Assembly: GCA_021650915.1 (NCBI GenBank)
Contig: CP091279.1
Span: 2,250,001-2,282,000 of the forward strand
Direction: 5' to 3'
Source: Candidatus Brocadia sp.
GTDB taxonomy: Bacteria; Planctomycetota; Brocadiia; Brocadiales; Brocadiaceae
Length of the DNA stretch: 32,000 nt
The translations under genes were made by a program, and so were the position numbers. Positions 1,833 to 31,448 of this stretch are shown piece by piece. Position 1 is the stretch's first letter. The number at the start of each line of letters is the position of its first letter. Under the pieces are notes generated by a model, which saw only the letters and a list, made by a program, of their open reading frames with translations, ran no database searches and was not told where the DNA came from.

Positions 1833-3116
1833 TTAGCGGGCCGGGCATCTTTGTCTCAATTTATCAACTAGGTCGCCCGGGATGGTGATTTTGGCAATGG
1901 GACAGTCGAGCCTTCTCTCACCATGAAAATCCGAACCACCGGTTACTGCAAGGTCATATTTCTTTGCAACCTTAAGGTACTTCCTGACGGTCTGGGGGGA
2001 ATGCGAGGGATAATATACCTCAATCCCCTGCAAGCCGTATTGTACCAAATCTCCGATAATGTGGTCTCTTTGCGTGAGTCCCGGATGCGCCAGCACCGCC
2101 ACCCCGCCGGCATCCCTGATGAGTTCAATGGCCTGTTGCGACGTCAGGGTCTTTTTCGGGACATATGCGGGCTTGTTATCTCCTATATATTTGGTAAATG
2201 ATTCGATAATCGTCGCGCAATAGCCGTGTTTCCAGAGCGTTTCCGCCACGTGCATGCGACCCGGGGACCCTTGCCCGGCGAGGGCAAGAATTTCCTGCGC
2301 ATCAATATCAACGTGAAGCGCATGCAATTTGTCCACCATGTCGTGAATGCGATTCACACGATCATCGCGGGATTGTCGTATCATTTTTTGGAGGGAAATG
2401 TTATTCACATCGATAAAATAGCCCAGGATATGCACCTCGGACGGGCTGAGGTATGAAGAAAATTCTATACCGGAAATAATATGGATATTTTTCCCTTGTC
2501 CGTAACGAAGGGCAATGACAAGCCCATCAACGGTATCATGATCCGTAATCGAAATCGTAGAGACGCCGCGGCGCAGGGCGTCATCGACAACTTCTTCCGG
2601 TGTCATGGTGCCATCGGAATAATTGGTGTGGATATGGAGGTCGGCGTTCCCATACTGGACTTCCGATACATTCTGAAGAGGGGGAGGGCACGCTTCTCCC
2701 TTCACTTTTCCGTCTCCACCCTGGGTATAAATCTTATCTAGGATTCCGTTCACAAACGTTCCGGAGTTTTTAGTGCTGAATTTTTTGGCAAGCTCTATTG
2801 CCTCGTTAATTGACACCTTGGGGGGAATGTCGTTCCGGTACAATAATTCGTACACTCCCAAACGGAGAATGTTTTTGTCGATAATGGCCATGCGCCGCAA
2901 TTCCCAGTGCTCAGTAACCATCGATATTTTTTCATCAATTTCTTTCAGGTGTGACCGGCAACCGTTGGTGAGCGCTATCGCAAATTGGTAAACGTCATGC
3001 TTTTCCGTGCTCCTCTTACAAAAACTCTCTATCTCACCAAGGATTTCATCACCACGCAGATCAAGTTGATACAGGGCCTGAATGGCGAGTTCGCGTGCAA
3101 TTGTTCTATTGCGCAT
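1833..3116 (-). CDS. nusB: NusB antitermination factor fused to a PHP-family (TrpH/YciV-like) phosphoesterase domain
   Basis: 427-aa ORF. The N-terminal ~135 aa (RELAIQALYQLDLRG...AIELAKKF...FVNGILDKI) is NusB-like. Residues ~165-427 (DLHIHTNYSDGT...ISITDHDT...GIEFSS...AHPG...TGGSDFHG) carry PHP metal-binding motifs. It sits directly downstream of ribH, as in the classical ribH-nusB arrangement. Confidence 0.85.
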   Translation of the reverse strand: MRNRTIARELAIQALYQLDLRGDEILGEIESFCKRSTEKHDVYQFAIALTNGCRSHLKEIDEKISMVTEHWELRRMAIIDKNILRLGVYELLYRNDIPPKVSINEAIELAKKFSTKNSGTFVNGILDKIYTQGGDGKVKGEACPPPLQNVSEVQYGNADLHIHTNYSDGTMTPEEVVDDALRRGVSTISITDHDTVDGLVIALRYGQGKNIHIISGIEFSSYLSPSEVHILGYFIDVNNISLQKMIRQSRDDRVNRIHDMVDKLHALHVDIDAQEILALAGQGSPGRMHVAETLWKHGYCATIIESFTKYIGDNKPAYVPKKTLTSQQAIELIRDAGGVAVLAHPGLTQRDHIIGDLVQYGLQGIEVYYPSHSPQTVRKYLKVAKKYDLAVTGGSDFHGERRLDCPIAKITIPGDLVDKLRQRCPAR

Positions 3117-3796: not shown

Positions 3797-3818
3797 CGTA
3801 AACCAGCTTAAATAAACT

Positions 3819-3870
3819 GAAAATTCCTATACACTCTAGTTAATTAGGCTGCCTTTAGCAACGACTTTTC
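3819..3870. repeat. partial copy of repeat family R3 (GAAAATTCCTATACA..TTAATTAGGCTGCCTT..)
   Basis: Aligns to the reverse complement of 6430-6484 and to 12637-12680. Confidence 0.6.
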
Positions 3871-4293
3871 AGCTCCCCTCTAAAAAGAAGGGCTGGGGGG
3901 GTTATGGTTACTTACACGCACCTAAATCCCCTCTCAAGGGGAAATCATCAGCTTGAAATTCTTCTGCATCCATATACATACAAATACCCCAATTTTTCAG
4001 CTAGACAGTGAAAAATAATAGCATAGACCAGCAAATCTTTCAAGGCTTTTCTGTCGGGCAACGCCCCCCAGCCGGTCACTCTGCGCAATGGAATGCTCAT
4101 TGTGCCGTTATCAGTCAATTCCTCATGGCAAACCGCCGAATTGTTCCTTGTAATTTGAGAAATATAGCGGTATGATACTACCTTTATTTTCGTACCGCAG
4201 GAATAATCATTCCGTATTGGCACAAAACCATGGGAACAGGATGTGGAAGAAACAAAGCCAGAAAACGCAGCATCTGAAACGGAAGGCTTGAGA

Positions 4294-5589
4294 ATGCCGC
4301 TAGGCGCGCATCTTGAAGAGTTGCGGCGCCGGGTCGTATATTCTCTTATCGCTATCATTCTCTGTTTTATCGTGTGCTGGTTTTTTAAAGTGCAGATACT
4401 GGACATGGCAAAGAGGCCCCATAAGTTTGCCATGGAAAAGGTTGGCCTCTCAACAGAATTGCAGGTGCTGAGCTATCAGGAGGGCTTCTATGCATATATG
4501 AAGCTGTGCTTCATAACGTCGGTTTTCTTCGCCTATCCCTTTGTGATATACCAGATATGGCAATTCGTGAGCGCCGGGCTCTACCAGCGAGAGCGACGGT
4601 ACGTGCTCTTGTTCCTCCCCGTTTCCTATGCAGCATTTGTGGTGGGAGGGCTTTTTGGCTATTTCCTGCTCATCCCCTTTGGTCTGCAGTTTTTGATCGG
4701 CATTCTTGGCCCCGGCATTCAGCCAATCATTACCATGCGGGACTACGTCTCATTTGTTTTCATGCTGACCGTGGCGCTGGGACTGGTATTCCAGTTGCCG
4801 CTCGTCATGCTGCTCCTCTCAAAGATCCGATTCATTACCCCGGATAAATTTATTGCATGGAGAAAGTATGCCATCCTGGCAATATTTATTATTGCCGCGA
4901 TCGTCACGCCGCCCGATCCTTTTACCCAGTCCATGACCGCCATTCCCATGATTGTCCTCTATGAATTGGGCATCCTCATTGCAAGGCCTACCAGGAAAGG
5001 ATTTTTCTTTTTAGGCGGCATCGTTGGGGGAGGGATCATGATATTGCTGGCGTTGTATTTTTATTTAACCTACAAGGGCGGTGACGTCAACCTGTTCGAT
5101 ACCCGGGGAGAGGTTCAATTTTTGTACCCGGAAGGGCAGGCATGGGAAGAGGTATCAAACCACAGCCATTTCCGGAACGGTATTACCCTGAAGACCGGCA
5201 GCGAAGGAAGAACTGCCCTGTCTACAAAGAAGGGAATTGACATGAGTATGGACGCAAATACCGAAGTGCATATTGCTGATTCCTTGAAGATAAGGCTCAA
5301 ATCAGGCCAAATCCTCGTCTCCGTGAAAGGGTCGGAAATACCCCTGGAAATCGATACACCAAATGGACGGATCAGAACCGAAAGGGGTACCTTGAACATT
5401 GTGGCGAAGGATTTTCTTACCGTCGTGACTGCAGTAAAGGGCGATGCCGTTCTGGTCATGGAAGGTGAAGAAAAAAAGTTGCTGGAGGGACGGCAGCATA
5501 AGATGTCCATCGGCGGTGAACCGGTCGACATCGGGGCGATTATCAATTGGTCTGAAGGAGTGCTCAACAAACCGGATGGAAAAGAATAA
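4294..5589 (+). CDS. tatC: Sec-independent translocase subunit TatC with an extra C-terminal TM segment and a FecR-like periplasmic domain
   Basis: The ORF track opens at GTG 4243. I prefer ATG 4294 (MPLGAHLEELRRR..., the typical TatC N-terminus, with GGAAGG 8 nt upstream). The first ~250 aa form the 6-TM TatC core. An extra TM follows (FFFLGGIVGGGIMILLALYFYL), then ~170 aa that are FecR-like (GITLKTGSEGRTALS...VHIADSLKIRLKSGQILVSV...IDTPNGRIRTERGTLNIV...VKGDAVLV). Confidence 0.85.
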   Translation: MPLGAHLEELRRRVVYSLIAIILCFIVCWFFKVQILDMAKRPHKFAMEKVGLSTELQVLSYQEGFYAYMKLCFITSVFFAYPFVIYQIWQFVSAGLYQRERRYVLLFLPVSYAAFVVGGLFGYFLLIPFGLQFLIGILGPGIQPIITMRDYVSFVFMLTVALGLVFQLPLVMLLLSKIRFITPDKFIAWRKYAILAIFIIAAIVTPPDPFTQSMTAIPMIVLYELGILIARPTRKGFFFLGGIVGGGIMILLALYFYLTYKGGDVNLFDTRGEVQFLYPEGQAWEEVSNHSHFRNGITLKTGSEGRTALSTKKGIDMSMDANTEVHIADSLKIRLKSGQILVSVKGSEIPLEIDTPNGRIRTERGTLNIVAKDFLTVVTAVKGDAVLVMEGEEKKLLEGRQHKMSIGGEPVDIGAIINWSEGVLNKPDGKE

Positions 5590-5706: not shown

Positions 5707-5767
5707 AAAAAGTGTGCCATGACACACTTATGTAACGTCACACAAGTGTGTCATGGCACACTTTTTT
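5707..5767. terminator. bidirectional intrinsic terminator-like hairpin
   Basis: AAAAAGTGTGCCATGACACACTT (5707-5729) pairs with AAGTGTGTCATGGCACACTTTTT (5744-5766). The 18-bp perfect stem is flanked by an A-run and a T-run. Confidence 0.65.
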
Positions 5768-5932
5768 ACGTATCTTTTCAACAAACCGCTCACCTCCATT
5801 TTTATCATTCAAATTACAACCTCAATTTAAAAAAGAGGTTACATCAAATATAACATTCACAGCATTTATTTATCTCTTTGCGGCATTTTGCTTGCTGTTT
5901 AATCAATAACTCAATTGAATAACCGTGTATAT

Positions 5933-6083
5933 CACGAAAAGGTAAACCCTGAGTGATCAGGGGGCGCAAAGTAAAGGATCTTCAATTGCGTTCTGAGTTT
6001 TGATTTTAGAAACGATTTGAGAAGATGGCCTTACTGCCGAAGATGTGTCGCACACTATCTTTGCAGTAAGGCCTTTGTTTTTT
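5933..6083 (+). promoter_or_regulatory. candidate c-di-GMP-I (GEMM-I) riboswitch aptamer plus intrinsic terminator expression platform
   Basis: 5937-5972 reads AAAAGGUAAACC-CUGA-GUGA-UCAGG-GGGCGCAAAGU. Compare the Vc2/Cd1 core GGCAAACC-helix-GNRA-helix-GGACGCAAAGC. A second long imperfect hairpin follows (AUCUUC 5978-5983 pairs with GAAGAU 6021-6026). The terminator is GGCCTTACTGC (6027-6037) / GCAGTAAGGCC (6063-6073) followed by TTTGTTTTTT. Confidence 0.55.
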
Positions 6084-6306
6084 AAAGGATGTTCGGCGGA
6101 TTGTGCTATACCGCAAAAAATCTTTCTTTTCCCCTTTTTATGGAGACATGTTTACAAGTTTTTCTACACCCCCACCTGACTTCGTCGTGAGCGCACAGTT
6201 GAACGACAGAGGGACATGGCGGTGGTGGTTTTGCTGCGTTATGGTTTTTTTCATAACTTTTCCGTATGCTACTAATTTTTTTCTCGTATTAGGAGTTTCA
6301 AGGTTT

Positions 6307-6375
6307 GAGATTCTTCGTCCGTTTCACTCCCTCAGAATGACACCGTTTGTCATTCTGCGGGAAGCGAAGAATCTC
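6307..6375. repeat. palindromic repeat (GAGATTCTTCG..CAGAATGAC / GTCATTCTG..CGAAGAATCTC)
   Basis: Imperfect inverted arms at 6307-6341 and 6349-6375. This produces the SLRMT..VILREAKNL pseudo-peptide in ORF 6103..6387. Confidence 0.7.
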
Positions 6376-6386
6376 ATTAATGTATA

Positions 6387-6484
6387 GAAATCTTAAAGTT
6401 GCGGTTGTAGGGCGACAAGGCTCGTCGCACTACCTTGAGAAAGTCGCCGAAGGCAGCCTAATTAAATGTATAGGAATTTCAATG
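6387..6484. repeat. repeat family R3, full copy (internal GTAGGGCGACAAGGCTCGTCGCACTAC hairpin plus GCCGAAGGCAGCCTAATTAA)
   Basis: About 85% identical to the reverse complement of 12631-12724. A partial copy is at 3819-3870 and a fragment at 6575-6600. Confidence 0.8.
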
Positions 6485-6490
6485 TTTGTT

Positions 6491-6565
6491 GTAGGGGCGA
6501 AGCATTTGCTGATATCAGATTTGAATGTCATCTTATATCCTGGACAGCAAATGCTTCGCCCCTAC
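6491..6565. repeat. repeat family R2 (GTAGGGGCGAAGCATTTGC - ~37 nt - GCAAATGCTTCGCCCCTAC)
   Basis: 19-bp perfect inverted arms. Other copies are at 14855-14928 and 31239-31309. Confidence 0.85.
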
Positions 6566-6616
6566 GTGTGATCGTAAACAAAGTAGCCGAAGGCCTAATT
6601 TAAGGATGGTTTAATT

Positions 6617-8602
6617 ATGAATACTATTTTATTATGTCTCTTCAGCCCAAAAAAGTATCTATGTCTCATCCTGCCGGTATTGTTATTCTGTCTTTTTGTC
6701 AACGCCTCTGCCCACCAGGAAATATCAAAAGAAAAGAACGCTGGCGGAGGACGATTTGCGCGGGACAGTTTGCCACCCAGGCAGTATTTTGAAGACCTTG
6801 CGATCCGGCGTTATGCGGTCGTAGTCGGCATATCAGATTACAAAGACCCGGGAATAGCCGATCTGAAATATGCGGATGCCGATGCGCAGGCATTTTATGA
6901 TTTTCTTACCAGCCCGGCCGGCGGTGATTTTCAGAAAGACCAGGTATTGCTTCTGAAGAATGAGCAGGCGACCCTGAAAAACGTTACCCTGGCCATCACC
7001 AATTTTCTTAAAAGGGCAAAAGACCCTGATTTTGTCGTCATTTTCATGGCATGTCACGGCGAGCCCGAACCAGACCGCCCCGGCAATCTCTACCTGCTTA
7101 TGCATGATTCCGAGCCCGGCAGCCTGTCTGCAACTGCCTATCACATGGAAAACGTCAATGCCGACATGAAACGATACGTTGCGGCAAAAAGACTGATTTT
7201 CTTTGCCGACGCCTGCCACAGTTCCGGGCTTACCGGGGAAATGACAAGCACCAGGGGAGGAGCAAATACGATTCATGCGGCGCTTTCCACCCTCAGGGCA
7301 ACGAGAGAGGGGTGGGGAATTGTCAGCGCAAGCAGGGCGCGCGAGGTCTCCGTAGAGTCCAGCCAGTTTGGCGGCGGTCACGGAGCATTCACCCATTACC
7401 TGCTCGAAGGATTAAAAGGAAAGGCCGACGCAGAAGGAAACAAAAACGGCATCGTTACCCTTGTGGAGGCATTCGATTTCGTAGAAGAAAACGTAAAGAA
7501 GGCAACGCACAACGCTCAGCACCCCGATATCTCGGGAAATTTTGACAACAACCTTCCCCTGGGATTCCCCGGGACAGGAACCGGCGCCAATGAAAGCGCC
7601 CAAAGCAGCGACACTCCACCCCTGGGAATTCTGAAGATTCACGGCGCACCTGAAGGGGCAACGGTATTTATCAAAGGGAAGGAAGTTGGCGCCGCGCCGC
7701 TGGACATAAAACTCGTAAGCGGGGCATATCCGGTTATGATAAAAACAAGAGGCGGCCGTGATGTGTCAGATACCGTATTTATCAATCCGGATGAAATAAC
7801 CGAAATCTGCGCCGAGCAATTCTTCGAACAGGTCTATTTTGGTGAAGACTCGGGCGCTTCCGGTAAAACGCTCCTGGCGTATTCAACCGCAGGCGGACCA
7901 TCGCAGGAATACCCAGGCTCCGGTAATGAAACGGGCGCGATGCCGTCAAAGAGTGAAAAGCCTGATGTTACAAAGACGGATGCCCCGTTGCCCGGCAGCG
8001 CCCTGGCCGTACCGGCAGAAATGATGCATAAGAAGACAGACGTGCAGAAAACAAAGGAAAATATCGATGCGCTTATTAAAGAATTGGAGATCATGGCCAG
8101 GCAGCAGGCCGGTGAAGAAAAACCCATGCCTGCCAAAAAGCCCGGAGAAAAGAGACCCGAATCCATAGCCGCTCCTCACGCCGTCCCCATATCACTGAAG
8201 GAATTTTGCGTAAAAATGGGTGCATTGCCCAGCAGGCACACCACCGTCATGCTCCGCCACAGGATTATCGACGCACTCCTGGCCCAAAACGGCTTGCTGG
8301 TGGTGGAAAGAGACTTGGAAATGCAGGAAGCAATCTTACGGGAACAGCGGCTCGGCGGCTCTGTCCTTGCCGATGAGATGTACAGAATAGGGCTGGGAAA
8401 GATACAAAGCGCCCAATTCCTTTTGTTCGGAGAAGTGTCTCAGGGAGAAAAGCCGGATCAAATCATGGTAAGAATAGAGATCGTTGACACGGCAACGACG
8501 CTCATCAACACGCTGGAACGCACCTTTCAGCGCGAAGAAAATCTGGGAGCCGTGGCGCACGATATCGCCGCAAAGATACGAGCAAAAATTATGGTTCAGT
8601 GA
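6617..8602 (+). CDS. secreted caspase-like cysteine peptidase (C14) with a PEGA domain, a disordered linker and a C-terminal CsgG/TolB-N-like domain
   Basis: 661-aa ORF with a signal peptide (LLFCLFVNASA|HQ). The C14 core is RYAVVVGISDYKD...FMACHGEP (His)...FFADACHSSG (Cys). The PEGA-like segment is LKIHGAPEGATVFIKGKEVGAAPLDIKLVSGAYPVMI. The C-terminus LLVVERDLEMQEAILREQRLGG...FLLFGEV...VRIEIVDTATT resembles the periplasmic CsgG/FlgO/LpoB-type fold. Confidence 0.85.
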   Translation: MNTILLCLFSPKKYLCLILPVLLFCLFVNASAHQEISKEKNAGGGRFARDSLPPRQYFEDLAIRRYAVVVGISDYKDPGIADLKYADADAQAFYDFLTSPAGGDFQKDQVLLLKNEQATLKNVTLAITNFLKRAKDPDFVVIFMACHGEPEPDRPGNLYLLMHDSEPGSLSATAYHMENVNADMKRYVAAKRLIFFADACHSSGLTGEMTSTRGGANTIHAALSTLRATREGWGIVSASRAREVSVESSQFGGGHGAFTHYLLEGLKGKADAEGNKNGIVTLVEAFDFVEENVKKATHNAQHPDISGNFDNNLPLGFPGTGTGANESAQSSDTPPLGILKIHGAPEGATVFIKGKEVGAAPLDIKLVSGAYPVMIKTRGGRDVSDTVFINPDEITEICAEQFFEQVYFGEDSGASGKTLLAYSTAGGPSQEYPGSGNETGAMPSKSEKPDVTKTDAPLPGSALAVPAEMMHKKTDVQKTKENIDALIKELEIMARQQAGEEKPMPAKKPGEKRPESIAAPHAVPISLKEFCVKMGALPSRHTTVMLRHRIIDALLAQNGLLVVERDLEMQEAILREQRLGGSVLADEMYRIGLGKIQSAQFLLFGEVSQGEKPDQIMVRIEIVDTATTLINTLERTFQREENLGAVAHDIAAKIRAKIMVQ

Positions 8603-8618
8603 AAGTGATCCCATCGTT

Positions 8619-9761
8619 ATGAAGAAAAATACCCGGTACACCATACCGCAGCGAAGCTGCAACCACGTCCCCCTTCATGAAGGGGACGGTCAAAACCCTT
8701 GCAAAAAAGGAAACGGTTTATACGGTACTACAATACTCAGATGCACACTGCTTATTGCAGGATTGGTATTTCCCCTGCTCAGCAGGGGAGCCCTTTCAGA
8801 CACCGCAAAGGATACCACACCACCGGTGGTGCACACGGATGTAACACCTGCGGTGGTGCATGATACCCACCTTTTTCTGAGCGGTGAGGCATGTGACAAC
8901 AACGGCATCGCACGGGTGCTGGTGAACGGATGTCCGCTGGAAATCCACACAGGAAGGCGCGTCTCTTTCAATCATCTCCTGCCCCTCAGAGAGGGAAGAA
9001 ATATCGTTACCGTCCAGGCCATTGATGCCAGCGGAAATGCGTCGGTCGTTTCGCCGGTGAAGATCACGAGAAAGGCCTTCGATCTGCCGGAAACCGTTTC
9101 CCGGTATGCCGTTGCCCTGCTTCCGGTCAAGTCCTCCCCGGCGCTTGATATGCCCGGGGAATCAATCCATTCCCTCTTCCTGAAGGCATTCGGCGAAGAA
9201 CCGCAGAGGTTCCATTTTGTGGAACGGGACCCGGCACGGCTTGAAGGAATCCTCCGTGAGCAACGGATCAGTAAAATCGGGCAGATATCCCCCGAAACGG
9301 TCATAAAGATCGGGAAGATCATTGCCGCAGAGGGGCTATTCCTGGTTACGATAGATGAAGACGTCAACGGCATCGGTATTACCCTGCGTCTGGTGGATAC
9401 GGAGACGGGTCGCATACGGGCGCAGGCAAGCGTGCATGATGCGGATAACGGCATGAAAAATCTCGAATGGCTTATCTATGGTCTGTCATTGAAGATCAAG
9501 CGACAGCTTCCCGCGGCGCAGGGGAACGTTATTCGGATTTCAGAAAACGGTTTTTATGTAAACACCGGCGCTGCTCATGGCATTGAGGTAGGGATGAAAT
9601 TATTGCTATTCCGTGAAATCAGGGAAGGGAATTTCGTCTTAAAAGAACCGCTTGACACGATTGCACGGGTGGAGCGGGTGCTGCCGCACATCTGTTTTGT
9701 TACCGTCAGCAGAGAGGGTATTTCCAGGGTGGAAAAAGGAGACCTTGTCCTTGCAAAGTAG
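8619..9761 (+). CDS. secreted Ig-like + CsgG/TolB-N-like + C-terminal beta-barrel domain protein (paralog of the 10061..12220 C-terminal half)
   Basis: The ORF track opens at 8484, overlapping the upstream gene. I prefer ATG 8619 (MKKNTRY...), though the start remains uncertain. A hydrophobic segment follows (LLIAGLVFPLLS). The Ig-like module is PPVVHTD...NGIARVLVNG...NIVTVQAIDASGN. The CsgG-like module is YAVALLPVKS...FHFVERDPARLEGILREQRI...LRLVDTETGRI. Confidence 0.75.
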   Translation: MKKNTRYTIPQRSCNHVPLHEGDGQNPCKKGNGLYGTTILRCTLLIAGLVFPLLSRGALSDTAKDTTPPVVHTDVTPAVVHDTHLFLSGEACDNNGIARVLVNGCPLEIHTGRRVSFNHLLPLREGRNIVTVQAIDASGNASVVSPVKITRKAFDLPETVSRYAVALLPVKSSPALDMPGESIHSLFLKAFGEEPQRFHFVERDPARLEGILREQRISKIGQISPETVIKIGKIIAAEGLFLVTIDEDVNGIGITLRLVDTETGRIRAQASVHDADNGMKNLEWLIYGLSLKIKRQLPAAQGNVIRISENGFYVNTGAAHGIEVGMKLLLFREIREGNFVLKEPLDTIARVERVLPHICFVTVSREGISRVEKGDLVLAK

Positions 9762-9765
9762 CAAA

Positions 9766-9871
9766 GCAGGGTGGATTAAGGCGCTTGTCTTTCAGCGCCG
9801 AATCCACCAAGATTATTAACCAGGCGGGTTCAGCAGCGTAAGGTGGATACGCTTCGCTTAATCCACCCTGC
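9766..9871. repeat. REPIN-like double hairpin, family R1
   Basis: GCAGGGTGGATTAAGGCGC..GCGCCGAATCCACC ... GGTGGATACGCTTCGCTTAATCCACCCTGC. It starts 5 nt after the stop at 9761. Confidence 0.8.
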
Positions 9872-10060
9872 TCCACGGAAAGAATATAGCCAGGGGTGAC
9901 AGCCCCTGGAAAAAGAAAAAGGATATAGCACCCATCGATGATTCTCTCTGCACTATTCAGATTCATAACGACGCATAGCCGCAACCATGTCCCCCTGCAG
10001 AAACGGGGTGAAGGGGGCGGTAAAAAGACCGGTAAAAAAAGCGGGATATTACGCGGTAAC

Positions 10061-12220
10061 ATGATAGCCATCCTGCCCCTATTTCTCCTGCCCTTTGCCG
10101 GCTGCACCACGACTTCCCGGATCGGCACGGACAACTGGCGGGATTATTTCAAGCCGGGGCATACCAAAGAGGAAATTGCCCGGGACTTTAATCTTTACCG
10201 GGGCAAGTGGTGGAACTACTACGTACGGGGCCGATGGTTTGCCGAGGGTGGTTTCTATGATGAGGCGGCTCAGGATTTCAGGAAGGCAATCAGCCTGCGC
10301 AGTCAGGATCAGCGTTCTGCCAGGAGCTACGGGATGCATTTCTGGGAATACTTTGCCCACCGCGAGCTGGGGGTTATCTATTATCACCAGGGCAAATACG
10401 AAGACGCCAAAAAGGAGCTTGAAATGTCCCGCTCTACGGCCGATTCTGCCAGGGCCAAGTATTACCTGAATAAAAGCAACGAGGCCATGATAAAGATGAC
10501 GAAGATGGATATCAAACCACCGGAGATCAGAATTACGTCACATACCAACGGCCAGGTTGTCAATACCCCGGCAGCGCACATCAGGGGGGTTGCCACCGAC
10601 GATGCCTACGTAAACGGCATGTCTATCCAGGGCAGAAGGCTGTTCATAGAACTTGCCGAACGGAATCTTTCCTTTGACGAAACCGTTTCCCTGCAGCGGG
10701 GAGAGAACGTGATCAGCATCGAGGCAACCGACCTTTCGGACAAAAGCGCCCGCCAGGATATGAAACTCATGCTCGACCTGCGCCCGCCGGTCTTGTATCT
10801 GGACGATATCCGGATCCAGAAGCGGGACGGACGCAATAGTGCAATTGTTACGGGAACCATCACGGACGACCATGGGGTACAACGCCTTTCAATAAATGAC
10901 ACCGAGATACCCATCACCCCAGGTAAGGAAGTGAAATTTCAGCATGAAATTGTCCTGACCGATGGCCATACCTTCTCCCTGAGGGCAGTCGACGTGGCCG
11001 GAAACGAAACACGGGGCGAAGAATCGTTAGACGTTAAGGCATCGCTCTGGCGCGGCGGCATATGGGATGGACATACCAGGCACATGCACCGGACAAAGGG
11101 TGCACCGGTCATGGTTGCGGCAGGCAAACTGGACAGGGCCGGCGTCAGGAGACTGCTGGCTGCTGGCGGGACAACCACCCAACCTTCCCCCGCAGGCGCT
11201 TCTCACGGGGGCACGGAAAATCCGGGAAAGGGATCAGGAGTGGCTTCTGGTTCGCACGAAACGGCAAGGGACACCATCCCGCCGGTGATCTATACGGATT
11301 TAAAATCTGCAATCGTCCATGATACAAACATCTTCTTCGGCATCCATGCGCACGACGATAACGGCATTGCAAGGCTCTTTGTCAATCAGCAGCCTTTGGA
11401 TATCCGGACTGCGAAGCACGTCTTCTTCAATCACCTGTTAACGCTCAACGAAGGAGAGAACACCGTCGTGGTAAAGGCCGTTGACAGGGAGGGAAACGAA
11501 ACGGAGCTTGCGCCGGTAAAGATTACCAAAAAGGCCTTTTATCTGCTGGAGACGGAGGCCCGGTATACCGTCGCCCTGCTTCCGTTCAGGACGTTTGAAG
11601 AAGACCAGGCGCTTACGGAAACCCTCTACTCCCTGTTGCTCAGGGCATTTGATGAAGAGCCGAAGCGGTTTAACTTTGTGGAACGCGACCTGACAAAACT
11701 GGAGGAGATCCTGCGCGAGCAAAAAATTGCCAACACGGAGCTCACCTCGCCCGACGCGGCCATAAAGGTCGGGAAGATCCGTGCGGCCGATGGCATGCTC
11801 TTTGGCGCGGTGGAGGAGGATTCCCGGGGCATCAGCGTCACCCTGCGGCTGGTCGATACGGAGACCACCCAGGTGCTGGTAAACGTCGATGTCTATGATG
11901 AAGACAAGAACGCGCAGAACCTCGCATGGCTGATGCACGGCCTGTCGCTCAAGGTGAAACGGCAATATCCCCTGGTGCAGGGCGGCGTCATCCGGATCGC
12001 AGGCAATGGATTCCACGTCGATGCCGGCGCAACGAGCGGGATGCTGGTCGGCATGAAACTGCTCATGTTCCGGGAGGTACCGGTGGGAAATCTTGCATTA
12101 AAGGAGCCCCTGTACAGTGTTGCCCGAATCGTGCAGGTGCAGCCAGACACCTCGTTTGCCCGGATAAGCACAAAGGGCATCAAGACGATAAAGAAGAAAG
12201 ACCTGGTTATAACGAAATGA
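10061..12220 (+). CDS. lipoprotein with TPR region, multiple Ig-like domains, a CsgG/TolB-N-like domain and a C-terminal beta-barrel domain
   Basis: The ORF track opens at 9938. I prefer ATG 10061, which gives a lipoprotein signal MIAILPLFLLPFAGC. The TPR-like segment is GGFYDEAAQDFRKAISL...YHQGKYEDAKKELE. There are repeated Ig-like modules (PPEIRITSH..., PPVLYLDD..., PPVIYTD...). The C-terminal ~330 aa is roughly half-identical (by eye) to 8619..9761 (FNFVERDLTKLEEILREQKI...LRLVDTETTQV). Confidence 0.8.
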   Translation: MIAILPLFLLPFAGCTTTSRIGTDNWRDYFKPGHTKEEIARDFNLYRGKWWNYYVRGRWFAEGGFYDEAAQDFRKAISLRSQDQRSARSYGMHFWEYFAHRELGVIYYHQGKYEDAKKELEMSRSTADSARAKYYLNKSNEAMIKMTKMDIKPPEIRITSHTNGQVVNTPAAHIRGVATDDAYVNGMSIQGRRLFIELAERNLSFDETVSLQRGENVISIEATDLSDKSARQDMKLMLDLRPPVLYLDDIRIQKRDGRNSAIVTGTITDDHGVQRLSINDTEIPITPGKEVKFQHEIVLTDGHTFSLRAVDVAGNETRGEESLDVKASLWRGGIWDGHTRHMHRTKGAPVMVAAGKLDRAGVRRLLAAGGTTTQPSPAGASHGGTENPGKGSGVASGSHETARDTIPPVIYTDLKSAIVHDTNIFFGIHAHDDNGIARLFVNQQPLDIRTAKHVFFNHLLTLNEGENTVVVKAVDREGNETELAPVKITKKAFYLLETEARYTVALLPFRTFEEDQALTETLYSLLLRAFDEEPKRFNFVERDLTKLEEILREQKIANTELTSPDAAIKVGKIRAADGMLFGAVEEDSRGISVTLRLVDTETTQVLVNVDVYDEDKNAQNLAWLMHGLSLKVKRQYPLVQGGVIRIAGNGFHVDAGATSGMLVGMKLLMFREVPVGNLALKEPLYSVARIVQVQPDTSFARISTKGIKTIKKKDLVITK

Positions 12221-12353
12221 AAGAGTTCTGGGATCCCGGATCGTGGATTTTGGATTGCGGATTTCGGATGGTTCGGCTTCGCTCTCCACGAGTTTTTGGT
12301 TTGCGGGTTGCGGGTTTGGGAGTTGAAAGTTTGGGATTTTGGATTTATGGCTG

Positions 12354-12440
12354 GTTCAGGCTTGCAGCCTGAACCGAAACGGTTTGGTTCAATCGTTCGG
12401 CTGAGCGCTCGCGGCGGGTTTGGGTTTGCAACCCAAACCC
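12354..12440. repeat. repeat family R4 (GGTTCAGGCTTGCAGCCTGAACCGAAACGG...) followed by the palindrome GGGTTTGGGTTTGCAACCCAAACCC
   Basis: Hairpin at 12354-12376. Related copies are at 12731-12761 and 20227-20322. Confidence 0.7.
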
Positions 12441-12500
12441 ATGATTTGATGGGGTATATTTATGCCAGAAATTGAATCGTATTCGTGCCAATCCGGCAGT

Positions 12501-12534
12501 GTAAGGCGGATACGCTTCGTTTAATCCACCCGGC
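12501..12534. repeat. half copy of family R1 (GTAAGGCGGATACGCTTCGTTTAATCCACCCGGC)
   Basis: Matches the right-hand unit of 9766-9871. Confidence 0.65.
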
Positions 12535-12630
12535 TCCACTTTTCAGATACAGGGGAAATGCCGGTTAAAAACAACCCTTGCCCCATTTCTTAAGGGGGAT
12601 TCAGGGGGCTGTCTGGTATGCTACGATACA

Positions 12631-12724
12631 AACTTTGAAATTCTTAACATTAATTAGGCCTTCGGCGATTTTCTCAATGTAAAGCGACGAGCCTCGTCGC
12701 TCTACAACTGCAACTTTGAAATTC
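12631..12724. repeat. repeat family R3, full copy, inverted relative to 6387-6484
   Basis: AACTTTGAAATTC occurs as a direct repeat at both ends (12631-12643 and 12712-12724). The internal hairpin is GCGACGAGCCTCGTCGC. Confidence 0.8.
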
Positions 12725-12730
12725 AATATA

Positions 12731-12761
12731 GGGTTCAGGCTTGTAGCCTGAACCGAGACGG
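12731..12761. repeat. repeat family R4 hairpin (GGGTTCAGGCTTGTAGCCTGAACCGAGACGG)
   Basis: Same hairpin as 12354-12376. Confidence 0.7.
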
Positions 12762-12859
12762 TAAAATACAAAAATAACCCGAAACTTGTGGTGAGCGAAG
12801 TCCCTCTCTGCCGTGCAGGCACAGGCAGGAGAACCACTCAAAACTCGAACGGTGAACCT

Positions 12860-14209
12860 ATGAAAACAAAACAAATCCTTTTTCTTATCATCCTATTTCT
12901 GCCCATCGCAGCGCCCTTCACAAAATCCTCTTTTGCTCAACAAGTACCTACCTCCATAAATGCGGTGCCTCTTCCTGTTGGCTCTGGCGCCAGGGCATTG
13001 GGCATGGGCGGCGCCTTTATTGCCGTCGCCGACGATGCCACTGCGGCATCGTGGAATCCCGGCGGCCTGACACAATTGGAAAGACCAGAACTCTCTGTGG
13101 TAGGTTCCTTCTTATCCACACACATGGATTTTGATCCTGGCAATACAGGTTTCTTCTCCCTTGGCAACGAGGATGTATCGCGGGGTGATCTGAATTATGC
13201 CAGTGTTGCATATCCATTCAAGGTGTTAGGAAAAAATCTGGTTGCTGCATTGAATTATCAACAGAAATACGATTTTCATATGAATGTTGATTTTGATTTG
13301 ACAGATGATAGTTTGGGAATTAATGAAGATATAAATATTGATTTTAAATCAAAAGGTGGAATAGGTGCCCTGACGCCTGCCATCGCCATGCAGGTGATGC
13401 CCAAACTATCCATAGGGGTAGCGGTAAATATCTTTACTGACGAATTTTTCGACGATTTTGCCTGGAAAGAAACATTGAAAATGTCAGGATTTGGTACCGA
13501 CGGAGTGGATACAATTAATGACACTGCAAAATCAGTTAGGGAATTCAAAAATTTTCAGGCAGTAAACGTAACGGCAGGCATGCTGTGGGATGTATGGGAA
13601 GAGGAGGAGAAGTGCCTTACCTTTGGCGCCGTGTATCATTCCCCATATACGGCAGATGTTGACCGTATTATAGATTCTCAAAGTACCAGCAATTTTTCAG
13701 GTTCAATTTCTACTTTTTCAAATCATATTAGGGAACATTTCGAGATAGACTATCCTATGTCTATTGGTGCTGGGTGGGGCTTCCGTTACAGCGATGCATT
13801 ATCCCTTTCTATGGATGTGACGTGGACGGATTGGTCTGAATATGAACAGGAGAATAAAGAAACCGGGGAAGAAACCCGTCCCCTGGGACTTGGTGTATCA
13901 ACTGACAGGGACATTGATGATACCTACGCTGTAAGGTTTGGCACAGAGTACCTGATTTTCCGGCAAAAGATGATTATCCCCGTACGGGGTGGACTTTTTT
14001 ACGAACCCCGTCCATCCCTGGATGACCCTACAGACGTATATGGCGTTAGTGTGGGGAGCGGCATTACCTTCAAGAGGTTCAGTATTGACGGTGCATATCA
14101 GTTCCGGTGGGCGAATGATGTGGACGGAGAAGATTTTGGTGAACTTCAAGGAACTCACTTTGATCTCCAGGAGCACCTGTTCCTGGCCTCCGTCATTGTC
14201 TATTTCTAA
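12860..14209 (+). CDS. outer-membrane beta-barrel protein, FadL/OmpP1/PorV-like
   Basis: I prefer ATG 12860 (MKTKQILFLIILFLPIAAPFTKSSFA|QQ signal peptide). The N-terminal plug-like motif GSGARALGMGGAFIAVADDATAASWNPGGL is typical of the FadL/PorV-type family. Amphipathic strands alternate throughout, and the C-terminus is aromatic (...ASVIVYF). Confidence 0.75.
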   Translation: MKTKQILFLIILFLPIAAPFTKSSFAQQVPTSINAVPLPVGSGARALGMGGAFIAVADDATAASWNPGGLTQLERPELSVVGSFLSTHMDFDPGNTGFFSLGNEDVSRGDLNYASVAYPFKVLGKNLVAALNYQQKYDFHMNVDFDLTDDSLGINEDINIDFKSKGGIGALTPAIAMQVMPKLSIGVAVNIFTDEFFDDFAWKETLKMSGFGTDGVDTINDTAKSVREFKNFQAVNVTAGMLWDVWEEEEKCLTFGAVYHSPYTADVDRIIDSQSTSNFSGSISTFSNHIREHFEIDYPMSIGAGWGFRYSDALSLSMDVTWTDWSEYEQENKETGEETRPLGLGVSTDRDIDDTYAVRFGTEYLIFRQKMIIPVRGGLFYEPRPSLDDPTDVYGVSVGSGITFKRFSIDGAYQFRWANDVDGEDFGELQGTHFDLQEHLFLASVIVYF

Positions 14210-14210
14210 G

Positions 14211-14272
14211 TTCCCCTCTAACAAGGGGTGTGTCATAGCTCCCCTCTATTAAGAGGGGTAACGGTGTGTGTC
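14211..14272. repeat. repeat family R5: tandem CCCCTCT-loop-AG(A)GGGG hairpins with GGTGTGTG flank
   Basis: CCCCTCTAACAAGGGG (14213-14228) and CCCCTCTATTAAGAGGGG (14241-14258). Related copies are at 15041-15085, 15268-15290 + 15543-15572, and 17844-17948. Confidence 0.75.
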
Positions 14273-14351
14273 TCGCAACTAAAAAAGGCATGGAGGGTGT
14301 ACTCCACCTTTATTCATACATACAAGGTTGAAAAGGAGGGAAAAAGTGAGT

Positions 14352-14750
14352 ATGAAAAATAGAAACGTGCGCTTTTATGGGCTGATGGCAGGATTCATTT
14401 TGTTCTTCAGCATATTAACCTGCGGGTGTATAACAATTACTATTTATGATAGTGATTGTTGTCAGTGTCCTCATGTAACCGGTGAAGGAATTCCAGGAGT
14501 TTATCCTATGGGAAGGATTTGGGGATATATCAAGAATAACTCGGGACAACCAATTGCTAACGCACAAATTACTATTACTCCTGGTACAGGAGTAAGTACT
14601 TCAAATTCGGCAGGAAAATATGTAACTTCTTTTGTAGATTACGGTTTGTATACATTAACAGTCACAGCTAATGGTTATCAACCTGGAGGGGGTCAAGTAA
14701 ACGTTAATGCTTTGTCAGTTCGGAAGGACTATACGCTAAATCCACAATAA
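14352..14750 (+). CDS. small membrane-anchored or lipoprotein-like protein with a CarboxypepD_reg-like beta-sandwich domain
   Basis: RBS AAGGAGG at 14333-14339. Candidate starts are GTG 14346 or ATG 14352; the track's TTG 14328 lies upstream of the RBS. Signal/anchor is FILFFSILTCGCITI. The domain reads GYIKNNSGQPIANAQITITPG...AGKYVTSFVDYGLYTLTVTANGYQP. Confidence 0.7.
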   Translation: MKNRNVRFYGLMAGFILFFSILTCGCITITIYDSDCCQCPHVTGEGIPGVYPMGRIWGYIKNNSGQPIANAQITITPGTGVSTSNSAGKYVTSFVDYGLYTLTVTANGYQPGGGQVNVNALSVRKDYTLNPQ

Positions 14751-14797: not shown

Positions 14798-14955
14798 TTT
14801 TGTAACACTTTAGTTTTTTGAAAAATTACAATAATAACGATGTTGCCGCACGGTGTAGGGGCGAAGCATTTGCCATACATTGGCATAAAGGTATTCACAC
14901 CCCAAGCAGGCAAATGCTTCGCCCCTACCTTTTCAAAAAACTAAAGTGTTACAAA
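14798..14955. repeat. 158-bp nested palindromic element: 27-bp outer inverted arms (1 mismatch) enclosing a family R2 unit
   Basis: Outer arms are TTTGTAACACTTTAGTTTTTTGAAAAA (14798-14824) and CTTTTCAAAAAACTAAAGTGTTACAAA (14929-14955). Inner arms are GTAGGGGCGAAGCATTTGCC / GGCAAATGCTTCGCCCCTAC (14855-14928). Confidence 0.85.
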
Positions 14956-15713: not shown

Positions 15714-16700
15714 ATGAAATATGTAATCCGGCGGCAATCATTCAAGGCACATGTTACGATGTGTCTGTTCATAACGTTAATTTCTACCTTGCCATTAATA
15801 GGTTCTGCATGTACTAAAGGAGCAAGTGAACCGCTAGCACCATCACCGGACAGCCCCGTGCCCAAAGAAACGCCCAGGGAAGGTGCTGTTGAACCAACGC
15901 AATCACAGGATACAACAAGTGTTGCGAGGCCAGCGCCATCAAAGCAACCAAAGGATTCAATCGATATGTCCTCTGAGGTTAAAAGCATTGGGGGCATTAC
16001 ATGGCAGGGAGATTCTCTCTGGGTGTTGGATGATGAGAGGAAAATAATCGATCGATTTGATACTACTTTAGAGGAACTTTCCCCTGACCATAAATATTCA
16101 ATTGATCTTACACAGTCAAGCGCTTTTAGTTTGAAAAAATTCAAAGGTCTGGCCTATGACAAAGAAGCCGAAGCACTCTGGGTTGCCGCTGAAGAGACAG
16201 ATATAGATCCGAAGAAAATGGTTCCGATGCTGATTAAGATTAATCTTGTCAACAGACAGACGGAACTTATAAAGATGGAGATTCCCGCAAAGAAAGGGTT
16301 TAAGTCCATTGAGGGCATTGCATGGGACAAGAAAAGAGAAAGCCTCTGGGTTGCCATTTACGCAGGATTTTCGAGCTCATTAAATCAGATCAATCCTAAA
16401 ACCAGACAAATCACAAAAAGTATCTTCTCTGATAGTTATCCCAAAGGTATTGCAACGGATGGAGAGCATCTTTGGAGTATTTGTTACAACGGAGAGGAAT
16501 TCCCTTCCGCAATAGATCAGAGAATAATACAGCCTGAAGAGCATAAAATGTTACGTTCGCGTGAATTTATTAAAGACATACCGGAAGCAGAACCCATTAG
16601 CCTTGTTTTTGATGGTAATGATCTCTGGTATGCAGATAAAAAAACAAAGCGTGTTATAAGGTTTATACAGCCCAATAAGAAACCTCTTCAATTGAAATAA
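15714..16700 (+). CDS. lipoprotein with a 5-bladed beta-propeller (glutamine cyclotransferase/NHL-like repeats)
   Basis: Strong RBS AAGGAGGAG before ATG 15714. Signal LPLIGSAC, then a Pro/Ser-rich linker. Five repeats end in an LW motif: DSLWVLD, EALWVAA, ESLWVAI, EHLWSIC, NDLWYAD. Confidence 0.75.
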   Translation: MKYVIRRQSFKAHVTMCLFITLISTLPLIGSACTKGASEPLAPSPDSPVPKETPREGAVEPTQSQDTTSVARPAPSKQPKDSIDMSSEVKSIGGITWQGDSLWVLDDERKIIDRFDTTLEELSPDHKYSIDLTQSSAFSLKKFKGLAYDKEAEALWVAAEETDIDPKKMVPMLIKINLVNRQTELIKMEIPAKKGFKSIEGIAWDKKRESLWVAIYAGFSSSLNQINPKTRQITKSIFSDSYPKGIATDGEHLWSICYNGEEFPSAIDQRIIQPEEHKMLRSREFIKDIPEAEPISLVFDGNDLWYADKKTKRVIRFIQPNKKPLQLK

Positions 16701-16729
16701 TTGCAAGCACCAAATAAGGAGAAAATATC

Positions 16730-17761
16730 ATGCAAAGATTTTTAAAGAGATTTTCCTATATCTTTATGATATGCCTTGTCCTTTCCGGAGGCTGTATCAC
16801 AGTTGAATACAGACGTGGACCTATTCCAGAACATCTGTCAATGGGGGAACATGCTCATAGTTGTTATTGTGGTTGTTGTGATATATCTGGACCTCGACCA
16901 CCACCTGTCCTATCACCCGCATCCGAATATAAACATGCCGTGTTAATCTGTGCAGGGGTAACGAATGCAGACCGACAAAGGTATAATTCAGCATATTGGT
17001 ATGATCTTATGAGTCAATATCTGATGCTGAGAGAGCGTGGGTTTAATGATGAGAATATTCATGTACTTTATGGTTATGATGGAGAAGATTACTATCCCGG
17101 ACTTTTAGATTATAACTCTGCACATTTGTTTGGTAAGAAAATTACTGATATGGCTATTTCTAAAGCGAATATTGAATCAGTATTCCAGGCATTAGGTGGT
17201 AAAAGAAGTGATGTAAATTGTGTAAGTCGTGCCCTAACTGATGAGGATTATTTGTATATCTGGTGGATGGGCCACGGCGGTTCTGATCCAGGTACTTGCA
17301 ATCTTTACTTGCCCATTAGTGTTACGGGTGAAGAATTTACTGACGTAGAATTGAGTAACTGTATTAATCAGGTTTCTCATTATAAAAAAAGAGTTGTCGC
17401 CGTAATGACCTGTTTCTCGAGTGGTATTCTCGATGATATGATAAACGAAAAAGGTGTTAATACAGTTACCCTTGCTTCATCATCCTGTGACGAATATTCA
17501 TATGATATCTGGCCGACCTGTGATCGCCGTCCTCATGCAGAATTTAATTATAAACTCACAGAGGCCATACGTCAGATGGATATATGCAATAAGCCACTTA
17601 AAAAAGATCCAGATACTAATCCAAAAGATGGTTATGTATCACTGGCGGAGGCATGTGATTATATTGCGCCGCCAATGAGAAACCCAACGGCCCCTCGCAA
17701 AATTAGTGACCCTGATAAGATAAGTGATTCGACTTATTTTAACGAGCCAAATACGCCTTAA
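16730..17761 (+). CDS. clan CD cysteine peptidase, legumain (C13)-like, lipoprotein-type signal
   Basis: 343-aa ORF with signal MICLVLSGGC. Candidate catalytic His is in YIWWMGHGGSD and Cys in VVAVMTCFSSG, in the His-then-Cys order and spacing typical of the caspase/legumain fold. HAVLICAGV matches the N-terminal beta-strand. Confidence 0.65.
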   Translation: MQRFLKRFSYIFMICLVLSGGCITVEYRRGPIPEHLSMGEHAHSCYCGCCDISGPRPPPVLSPASEYKHAVLICAGVTNADRQRYNSAYWYDLMSQYLMLRERGFNDENIHVLYGYDGEDYYPGLLDYNSAHLFGKKITDMAISKANIESVFQALGGKRSDVNCVSRALTDEDYLYIWWMGHGGSDPGTCNLYLPISVTGEEFTDVELSNCINQVSHYKKRVVAVMTCFSSGILDDMINEKGVNTVTLASSSCDEYSYDIWPTCDRRPHAEFNYKLTEAIRQMDICNKPLKKDPDTNPKDGYVSLAEACDYIAPPMRNPTAPRKISDPDKISDSTYFNEPNTP

Positions 17762-20329: not shown

Positions 20330-22351
20330 GTGATAACCAGTTGAGGGAGGCGTGCCTTGAAGTATGGGATACCTAAGTGGTTGAAAATATCACCTCTGCG
20401 AGCCTAAATCCTCGTAGAGAAGTTTGTACCTATGCGTATACAAAGGAGCAATCCGTATGCGGAGAAAGATGGCGTATTCCCGTGAAGGGTATGACGGAGT
20501 TACGAGGTACAGACGACCTTTTGGGGTGTATGAGTATGGCGTGTTAGTTCGTGCCAACTGCCCCTTCTCAGTAAAGCACTGACAAATGTCCTTGTTGGAG
20601 ATGATGCAAGCGATTCGGTGAAAACATCTCTGGATAATGCGTTTGAACATACATCACGAAGGGAAAAGGGGTAATCCATATGACCGGGGGAGGACTTACG
20701 TCTTGGGAAGAAATTCCCTAACAGCGAGGTATAAGGGAAATCCGAAATCCAAGCTGTATGAGATGGTGACGGACGACTGGCTCTCACAGGTCTGTCTTTG
20801 AAGTCGTCAGCATTGCTCATAATAGTTTCTGGTGTGTACCAGGAATGAAGGGGCATAACCGTAGTGGAGTTGATGAAACGTGGTAGATTGAATACGTTCC
20901 ATGAGAAAAGAGACTCTTTGCATGGGCAAGTAGTAGCAAGAGACTCTCTTGTTTTGCCTCTGTCAGGAGGAATCTCGACTCAGGAAACACGATTGACAAG
21001 TCTATTATCCGGAATCAATCAAAAGGAACATATCGGGAGATGCTTAAGTATCATTCTTTAAGAGACAAGGTATTCAGTCTGAGAAACCTTTATGCGGCTT
21101 TTGGGCACGTAAAGAAGAATAAAGGCAAGGCTGGTCTCGACAGGGTAAGTATTAAGCAGTTTGAAAGTGACCTTGAGAATAATCTACAAGCTATTCACAA
21201 GGAACTGAAAACCGCCATATACAACCCTGCGCCCGTCTTAAGGGTCTACATTCCCAAAGGCAGGCATGGCAAGAGACCTCTTGGCATTCCCATTGTCAAG
21301 GACAGGGTAGTACAGCAGGCGTTCAGACAAATCATAGAGCCAATATTCGAGAAAGAATTCTCGGATAACAGCTTTGGATTTCGTCCAAACAGATGCTGTC
21401 ATGATGCTATCAAACGGATTGAACAGTATAAGCAGCAAGGGTATCGGAACATTTTGGACGCCGATATAAAGGCGTTCTATGACACCATACCTCACAAGCT
21501 TATCATGAACTCCTTGCGTGAGAAAATCGCTGACGGATGGGTTTTGAACAGTATCGAGAACATGCTCAAGGCAGGGGTCATGGAGAACGGCATCGTGCAC
21601 GAGACAAATCAAGGCACTCCGCAAGGAGGCGTCATATCCCCCTTGCTTGCAAACCTTATCGGTGACATCATCGACAAGGAGCTTGAAAAGGCAGGATATA
21701 AATTTGTCCGCTATGCCGATGACTTCGTTGTCATGACTAAAACGAAAGAAGAACTCCCTGCCGCCCTTCAGTACGTCAAAGAAATCATTGAAGGGAAACT
21801 TGAAATGAAGCTGCGCGAGGATAAAACCAGGCTCACCAACTTCAAACGAGGCTTCCGGTTTCTTGGATATAATTTCATGGGCAAGAACAAGGGTGTAAGC
21901 ATGAAATCCCTGGACAAACTCAAGGACGCCGTCAGAGACATCACCAAACGCACACAAGGCGTCAACCTGCAAGCCGTCATTGATACATTAAATCCTGTCA
22001 TAAGGGGACATGTCAACTATTTTCGGCTGGGCAATGTACAAACGGTATATCGCTCGTTAGACTGCTGGGTACGCATGAGACTGAGAAGTTTCAAGTTTTC
22101 GAGAAAATGGAAAACTGACAACAAACGTTTCCCGGTACACCGATTCTTTAAGATGGGGTTACTCTCATTTGAAAGAGAATTTCTTAAGGCACGTGCGAAG
22201 GCATGATAGTTTACTTTTCTCTGCTCCAGAGCAACACTATGGGGTCGCTAACTACGGGAAAGCCGTATGGTTTAAAAGGATACTTTGTCACGTTGTCCAA
22301 AGTATCTGGCGACGATTGGGGGTTGGAGGCGATTCGCCTCCTTCCTACCAG
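20330..22351 (+). mobile_element. group II intron (ribozyme domains I-IV upstream of the RT ORF, short 3' tail); boundaries approximate
   Basis: About 700 nt of non-coding sequence precedes the RT. It has segments resembling group II domain I/III strings remembered from Ll.LtrB (GGUAUAAG; GUAGUAG...CAUGGGCAA). A ~145-nt structured tail follows the ORF (hairpins at 22273-22306 and 22325-22341). I could not fold a canonical domain V or place GUGYG / AY ends confidently. Confidence 0.6.
21040..22206 (+). CDS. group II intron reverse transcriptase/maturase, lacking the En (HNH) domain
   Basis: 388-aa ORF. RT motifs: RVYIPKGRHGKRPLGIP, FGFRP, DADIKAFYDTI, GTPQGGVISPLLANL, the YADDFVV active site, and the X/maturase motif LNPVIRGHVNYF. 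There is no C-terminal zinc-finger/HNH. Confidence 0.9.
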   Translation: MLKYHSLRDKVFSLRNLYAAFGHVKKNKGKAGLDRVSIKQFESDLENNLQAIHKELKTAIYNPAPVLRVYIPKGRHGKRPLGIPIVKDRVVQQAFRQIIEPIFEKEFSDNSFGFRPNRCCHDAIKRIEQYKQQGYRNILDADIKAFYDTIPHKLIMNSLREKIADGWVLNSIENMLKAGVMENGIVHETNQGTPQGGVISPLLANLIGDIIDKELEKAGYKFVRYADDFVVMTKTKEELPAALQYVKEIIEGKLEMKLREDKTRLTNFKRGFRFLGYNFMGKNKGVSMKSLDKLKDAVRDITKRTQGVNLQAVIDTLNPVIRGHVNYFRLGNVQTVYRSLDCWVRMRLRSFKFSRKWKTDNKRFPVHRFFKMGLLSFEREFLKARAKA

Positions 22352-31238: not shown

Positions 31239-31309
31239 GCAGGGGCGAAGTTTTTGCCAGTATGAACACGCACATATCCATACCGATTATGGCAAATGCT
31301 TCGCCCCTG
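31239..31309. repeat. repeat family R2 copy (GCAGGGGCGAAGTTTTTGCC ... GGCAAATGCTTCGCCCCTG)
   Basis: A variant of the 6491-6565 and 14855-14928 units, with a GCAG head instead of GTAG. Confidence 0.75.
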
Positions 31310-31448
31310 TGAGTAAGGTTTTCATACCTCTCCTTCATTCCCTCATCGAGAATGAGGGGAGAGAGGGCTGATTATGTTGATTGTGGCTTCGCGGTATCAA
31401 ATAAAAGTATGATTTTTCTAAGAAAAACACACCGTTTTAAGCATATTT

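Follow-up and report, generated by a model that had tools for sequence, protein, structure and literature searches.

The window, the whole 32-kb stretch of Candidatus Brocadia DNA analyzed here, carries on its forward strand a gene coding for a secreted orthocaspase-PEGA protein, preceded by a leader that harbors a promoter-like motif, an aptamer of the c-di-GMP-I (GEMM-I) class, an intrinsic terminator, and an insertion of hairpin repeats (Table 1). The protein has a signal peptide and invariant His and Cys-His motifs, and matches a Candidatus Brocadia sp. protein at 100% identity; a Protein Data Bank search with it returned no match. The genes that follow (8619..14750, +) are probably the rest of one operon with it, and their order is kept in the orthologous loci. 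The operon has an envelope function, and envelope functions are usual for the c-di-GMP-I riboswitch class.

Table 1. Features of the leader and of the predicted operon (window positions)
Feature	Position	Strand	Detail or basis
Sigma-54-type -24/-12 promoter-like motif GGCAT-N5-TTGCT	5882..5896	+	GG 5882-5883, GC 5894-5895
c-di-GMP-I (GEMM-I) aptamer	5931..6044	+	RF01051 score, RF03167 alignments, pairing, covariation in 12 orthologues
Aptamer P1	5931-5936 / 6038-6044	+	Seen in RF03167 alignments of orthologues
Aptamer junction pairs	5942-5943 / 5966-5967	+	G5942-C5967, U5943·G5966; Rfam alignments
Aptamer first hairpin	5947-5962	+	GUGA cap at 5953-5956
Aptamer second helix (P3)	5970-5983 / 6021-6035	+	Rfam alignments and pairing check; bulged A5974, GG bulge 6027-6028, variable distal insert 5984-6020 (37 nt)
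Vc2 G20 equivalent	5941	+	G; RF01051 model position 11; contacts one c-di-GMP guanine in Vc2
Vc2 A47 equivalent	5968	+	A; RF03167 consensus has G in the same column
Presumed Vc2 C92 equivalent	6037	+	C; aligned to consensus GCcgaag; inside terminator 5′ arm
Intrinsic terminator	6027..6083	+	Hairpin 6027-6073, U-tract 6074-6083
Displaced copy of ancestral ribosome-binding region AAAGGATG	6084..6091	+	Junctions aligned with compact leaders
Strain-specific insertion, ~517 nt	6092..6601	+	Absent from 12 orthologous leaders
Functional ribosome-binding site AAGGATG (6602-6608) and ATG (6617)	6602..6619	+	Leader alignment
Secreted orthocaspase-PEGA gene, first regulated gene (predicted)	6617..8602	+	Peptidase_C14, PEGA, C-terminal CsgG/LpoB-like region
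CsgG-like protein gene	8619-9761	+	Probable operon member
TPR/Glucodextran_B/CsgG-LpoB-like protein gene	9938-12220	+	Probable operon member
FadL/PorV/BamG-like outer-membrane barrel gene	12788-14209	+	Probable operon member
CarboxypepD_reg-domain protein gene	14328-14750	+	Probable operon member; small protein, domain also present in anammox S-layer glycoprotein (weak similarity)

The surroundings of the operon hold further features. The gene upstream (4243-5589, +) codes for TatC fused to a C-terminal FecR-like domain, an unusual fusion, and is followed at 5707-5766 by a near-perfect palindrome with 30-nt arms and flanking runs of A and T. This palindrome resembles a bidirectional terminator hairpin and gives spurious matches to microRNA models in Rfam at relaxed thresholds. 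On the opposite strand, an ORF at 1833-3116 codes for both a NusB and a PHP phosphoesterase domain. Downstream of the operon, 15714-17761 (+) holds genes for an SdiA-regulated-like protein and for a second cysteine protease (Peptidase_C13, legumain-like).

Class membership and fold of the aptamer

When both strands of the window were scanned against 4227 Rfam families, the sole match at or above its gathering score was to RF01051 (c-di-GMP-I), at 5931-6041 (+). At 53.5 bits, the match exceeded the gathering score of 35 (E = 6e-8, computed for the whole window and all families), and the model was matched over its full length (1-87). RF01786, included as a control, gave no match in these all-family scans. 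The initial annotation had recognized a GEMM-I core at 5937-5972; the sequence it quoted was correct on re-reading, and its class assignment agrees with the Rfam result. As a curated model of a known class detects it, we regard the element, on its sequence, as a bona fide class-I c-di-GMP riboswitch.

The anatomy of the aptamer was obtained by mapping the window onto the Rfam alignments. P1 and two hairpin helices, all of them pairable, form a three-way junction in which every consensus pair is canonical (26/26), and the 155-nt element folds with z = -4.4 relative to dinucleotide shuffles. Two pairings that had been noticed before are real, yet they belong elsewhere. The pairing of AUCUUC (5978-5983) with GAAGAU (6021-6026) is not a separate second hairpin, as had been thought, but the distal part of the aptamer's second helix, and that of GUAAAGG with CCUUAC is not an alternative to the aptamer but the proximal part of the same helix.

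Like Vibrio cholerae Vc2 and Vc1 (RF01051), the Brocadia aptamer has a three-helix junction with the G20/A47/C92 triad, G21-C46-type junction pairs, and a GNRA-capped first hairpin. C5965 lies where the interhelical C is expected, 3 nt before the A47 equivalent, as C36 lies before A39 in Vc1. A tertiary Watson-Crick pair between the two hairpin helices could form from C5965 and G6028, one of the two bulged bases in the second helix, where the consensus has 'AG'. The differences are a junction pair that is U-G and not C-G and a bulge that is GGC and not GAC (relative to the consensus, Vc2, and Vc1), a 37-nt distal insert in the second helix, and a planctomycete host. In addition, the tetraloop is GUGA, of the GYRA type, and not GAAA as in Vc2 and Vc1, and the second helix lacks the 11-nt receptor, being simply Watson-Crick paired. 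A tetraloop without an 11-nt receptor characterizes the 'type 2' architecture of GEMM-I (PMC11218506), to which the Brocadia aptamer accordingly belongs.

The leader in orthologous loci and its repeat insertion

A scan of species-representative genomes identified 25 anammox loci with an orthologous caspase-PEGA gene. Directly upstream of this gene, RF01051 or RF03167 was matched in 12 other contiguous Brocadia-clade loci (L001-L004, L017, L018, L208-L212, and L214, which make 13 with the window), with aptamer scores of 37.5-63.5 bits. In these 12 loci the aptamer ends ~55-60 nt before the ATG and the leader has the same layout, namely, aptamer, terminator, U-tract, AAAGGATG, 8-10 nt, and ATG. 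The gene upstream differs from locus to locus (TatC, a DinB-like polymerase, or a divergent Rce1-like gene), and because the layout nevertheless stays constant, the riboswitch travels with the caspase operon. The initial annotation had left the regulatory link uncertain; as 12 other loci have the aptamer immediately ahead of the orthologous gene, the question is settled in favor of regulation, and the riboswitch is predicted to control the operon of the caspase-like gene. Orthologous operons in other anammox lineages, including Jettenia, Kuenenia, and Anammoxibacter, were scanned with nhmmer and Rfam and have no aptamer at the gathering score; a second Rfam scan of nine non-Brocadia anammox loci at E <= 1 gave none either. 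Control by the aptamer thus seems dispensable, since these orthologous operons do without it.

The conserved halves of the 12 orthologues were aligned to look for covariation, as had been advised at the outset. In this alignment, 97% of the cells in paired columns are paired; sliding the 3′ partners by 1-3 columns lowers the value to 26-49%. Both partners differ in four pairs: one in P1 (C-G to U-A), one in the first hairpin (C-G to A-U), and two in the second helix (A-U to G-C and U-A to C-G), which places compensatory changes in all three long helices. One junction pair also varies among the orthologues (U·G, C-G, or U-A), and the covariation score was equaled in 0/500 shuffles. Because the clade is narrow (93% mean column identity) and the events are few and non-independent, we take the covariation as supportive rather than strong.

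An alignment of the sequences upstream of the aptamer (58% identity) has a single invariant block, (T)GGCAT-N5-TTGCT, whose GG and TTGC columns are invariant or near-invariant. The window reads cGGCAT-TTTGC-TTGCT at 5881-5896, which fits the sigma-54 -24/-12 consensus in the register TGGCAC-N5-TTGCW. The motif, with a background rate of 0.0025 per 100 nt, is present in 13/13 loci; its distance to the aptamer is 45-60 nt in 12 of these and 134 nt in L214, where a repeat insertion accounts for the difference. In the window alone the sigma-54 pattern is not significant (3 matches vs 1.1 expected). A sigma-70 promoter scan of 5767-6616 (+) found none. Transcription from sigma-54 promoters starts ~12 nt downstream, and we infer that the conserved motif is a sigma-54 promoter from which transcripts begin near 5907 (5906-5908). 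Its conservation suggests that enhancer-dependent transcription is combined with riboswitch control. According to a citation in PMC3343278, rpoN is known in another planctomycete.

The window differs from the compact leaders in the 535 nt that separate its terminator from the gene, a gap explained by the insertion of ~517 nt of dispersed hairpin repeats. The interval had indeed been described as filled with repeats and free of credible ORFs, and both statements stand: no Pfam-supported ORF lies in 6084-6616, and a 94-aa ORF in the repeats (6103-6387) has no family match. AAGGATG occurs twice, at 6085-6091 and 6602-6608, flanking the insertion, and the ancestral ribosome-binding region now displaced to the far side lies 8-10 nt before the ATG in other species. 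The insertion consists of three tandem units (heads at 6290, 6383, and 6469), each made of a conserved head TAGGARTTTCAARGTTTG, a unit-specific hairpin (6306-6376, ~6406-6433, and 6491-6565), and a conserved tail AAAGTNGCCGAAGGC..CCTAATTAA. Compared with Rfam, it gave no family match beyond chance hairpin matches, and related units or arms lie in the window at ~3.8, 12.7, 14.9, and 31.3 kb.

These repeats (6290-6603; 12620-12760 and 3800-3870 on the minus strand; 14855-14928; 31239-31310) form a REP/BIME- or MITE-like family with a conserved head and tail around a variable palindromic hairpin, arranged in intergenic tandem clusters. In L214, from another Brocadia species, a single unit of the same family (L214 1085-1170) separates the promoter motif from the aptamer. 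This unit would be an independent insertion, and the family would thus be mobile and have entered the leader at least twice.

Two conspecific contigs (L079 and L080, 99.6-99.7% identical) share the ~517-nt insertion, and short-read contigs stop at 6538-6545, inside the perfect palindrome 6491-6565. A third, the 3.25-Mb conspecific contig L081 (JAJTXD010000001.1), seemed to represent a riboswitch-less allele, a reading that we rejected, as a run of N (L081 2230-2389) lies just upstream of its caspase gene and hides the riboswitch. Through this run the caspase gene is placed next to a SIR2-CHAT gene, which is an artefact of scaffolding across the repeat. The 67 nt at 20349-20415 of the window, just upstream of a group II intron reverse transcriptase/maturase gene (21040-22206, +), are 100% identical to a flank of this scaffold gap; the group II intron is probably multi-copy, since the segment recurs there.

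The position of the insertion, exactly between the terminator with the old ribosome-binding site and the ATG, raises the question of whether the switch still acts on the gene in this genome. The leader including the insertion is very stably folded (z = -6.7) and has a weak terminator-like hairpin at 6219-6237, features that may weaken read-through or change the coupling. It is nevertheless unlikely, in our judgment, that the aptamer is real but uncoupled, with the insertion blocking read-through or supplying its own promoter and the riboswitch surviving as a recent relic. Aptamer, terminator, and even the displaced ribosome-binding site have stayed intact, with every consensus pair canonical, and L214 tolerates a related unit between its promoter and its aptamer. 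Moreover, the only conspecific assembly apparently devoid of the riboswitch has its run of N at that very place. Neither sigma-70-like nor sigma-54-like motifs were found on the + strand of the insertion in consensus scans, which may miss an internal promoter, as planctomycete promoters are poorly known.

Switching logic and proposed mechanism

The strong intrinsic terminator reported in the initial annotation is borne out: its arms (6027-6037 / 6063-6073) are complementary at 11/11 positions, an inner stem extends the hairpin, and the U-tract reads TTTGTTTTTT. On its own, the hairpin 6027-6073 folds at -29.6 kcal/mol, and its 3′ arm GCAGUAAGGC and the U-tract are kept in all orthologues. The mutually exclusive design of aptamer and terminator proposed there also stands. 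The 3′ strand of P3, the C92 equivalent, and the 3′ strand of P1 together make up the terminator 5′ arm (6027-6044), so that an expression platform in the 5′ leader overlaps the aptamer. The minimum-energy fold at full length contains the terminator (-52.6 kcal/mol, against -29.9 kcal/mol for the aptamer-enforced fold), and a transcript ending at 6045 folds into the GNRA-capped first hairpin and the second helix/P3. The leader anatomy contains no separate anti-terminator. Since the terminator 5′ arm is built from 3′ strands of the aptamer, termination should be prevented once the ligand binds, and because the two folds exclude each other, an ON switch is predicted from the anatomy (the initial annotation had left the direction open), with termination at ~6083 as the likely default state.

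Both polarities occur in the c-di-GMP-I class, and C. difficile Cd1 is reported to be an OFF switch. An OFF switch, or control exerted mainly on translation, appears very unlikely here: in the compact orthologues only ~5 nt lie between the end of the terminator and the ribosome-binding site, and the hairpin could affect ribosome access, but that site is unpaired in both the terminator and the aptamer folds, the functional one lies 517 nt away in this genome, and no distinct anti-terminator would relieve the exclusion between the aptamer 3′ strands and the terminator. Cd1 and Bacillus thuringiensis Bc1, from Firmicutes, likewise combine an aptamer of this class with an intrinsic terminator in the 5′ leaders of genes for the cell surface or motility; the Bc1 terminator is dual, and translation is affected as well (PMC11218506). 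Unlike in Cd1 and Bc1, the 3′ strands of the Brocadia aptamer themselves constitute the terminator 5′ arm, which argues for the transcriptional ON switch.

The three positions expected to contact the ligand (Table 1) are invariant across the 12 orthologues. C92 is the Watson-Crick partner of the second c-di-GMP guanine, and we take C6037 to be its probable equivalent. In Vc2, the contacts to c-di-GMP are made by G20, A47, and C92 (PMC4744006, PMC5888326). The 27 nt between the G20 and A47 equivalents match the spacing in Vc2 (20/47) and Vc1 (12/39).

Two variant groups share this scaffold. RF03167 (c-di-GMP-I-GGC) has the same overall fold, and it is the best-scoring family for five orthologues, at 61-63.5 bits, above its gathering score of 59, an advantage that stems from its modeled P1 stem; the window RNA reaches 54 bits. 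The RF03167 consensus reads GACGC-G-AA, with G at position 47, and the 'GGC' of its name would denote G20, G47, and C92. The GGC that replaces the usual GAC bulge in most Brocadia copies is a different feature, namely an A-to-G substitution at position 43, in a three-base bulge outside the listed ligand contacts, and two orthologues (L209 and L212) keep the standard GAC. The Geobacter GEMM-Ib riboswitches also control envelope or extracellular genes. GEMM-Ib riboswitches of the cGAMP type carry A at position 20, where G5941 and its counterparts are invariant. The existence of cGAMP variants of GEMM-Ib is documented (PMC7266159). Despite the RF03167 scores and the GGC bulge, it is extremely improbable that the RNA is a specificity variant of either kind with a ligand other than c-di-GMP: the G47 that the RF03167 variant requires is A in every Brocadia copy, the window RNA stays under the RF03167 gathering score, and G rather than A at position 20 speaks against the cGAMP type.

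With c-di-GMP as the probable ligand, the following mechanism can be proposed. Transcription would start ~25 nt upstream of the aptamer, at the conserved sigma-54-type promoter, and the three-helix aptamer (5931-6044) would fold as it is transcribed. In the absence of ligand, the far more stable terminator hairpin (6027-6073, then UUUGUUUUUU) would displace the P3 and P1 3′ strands and end transcription near 6083. With c-di-GMP bound at the junction (G5941, A5968, and C6037), these strands would be held in the aptamer, the terminator could not nucleate, and RNA polymerase would read through into the caspase-PEGA/CsgG-like/FadL-like operon, the ON state. Read-through in this genome would additionally have to traverse the 517-nt repeat insertion.

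Taken as a whole, we consider it likely that a class-I c-di-GMP riboswitch in the 5′ leader of this Ca. Brocadia envelope operon acts as a transcriptional ON switch. A wider reading is more tentative: the sigma-54 promoter and the riboswitch may together form a two-input gate on the envelope operon of the Brocadia clade, in a leader that is a recurrent landing site of a mobile repeat family, which perhaps retunes the switch. If true, such a gate would connect c-di-GMP directly, at the RNA level, with the cell-surface or aggregation phenotype of these anammox organisms. The granulation and aggregation of anammox biomass are often explained by invoking c-di-GMP. In the literature searched, no c-di-GMP riboswitch was described for anammox bacteria, and the present analysis names one concrete Brocadia operon as an expected direct responder, which would offer a testable handle in organisms that are not genetically manipulable. 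As RNA biology the element is routine, since a curated model detects it; more original are the sigma-54 motif, the invasion of the leader by mobile repeats, and a gain of the switch restricted to one clade.

A search of metagenomes with the pattern GGTAAACC..GNRA..GGGGCGCAA returned at least 119 matches, and among those listed, none lies upstream of homologues of the window proteins. The core GGUAAACC..GNRA..GGGGCGCAA, with U at 22 and G at 43, is thus widespread in metagenome contigs (L089-L168), so that the subtype with a GGC bulge is not special to Brocadia. The loops among the matches listed are GAAA (48), GUGA (24), GUAA (22), and GCGA (18).
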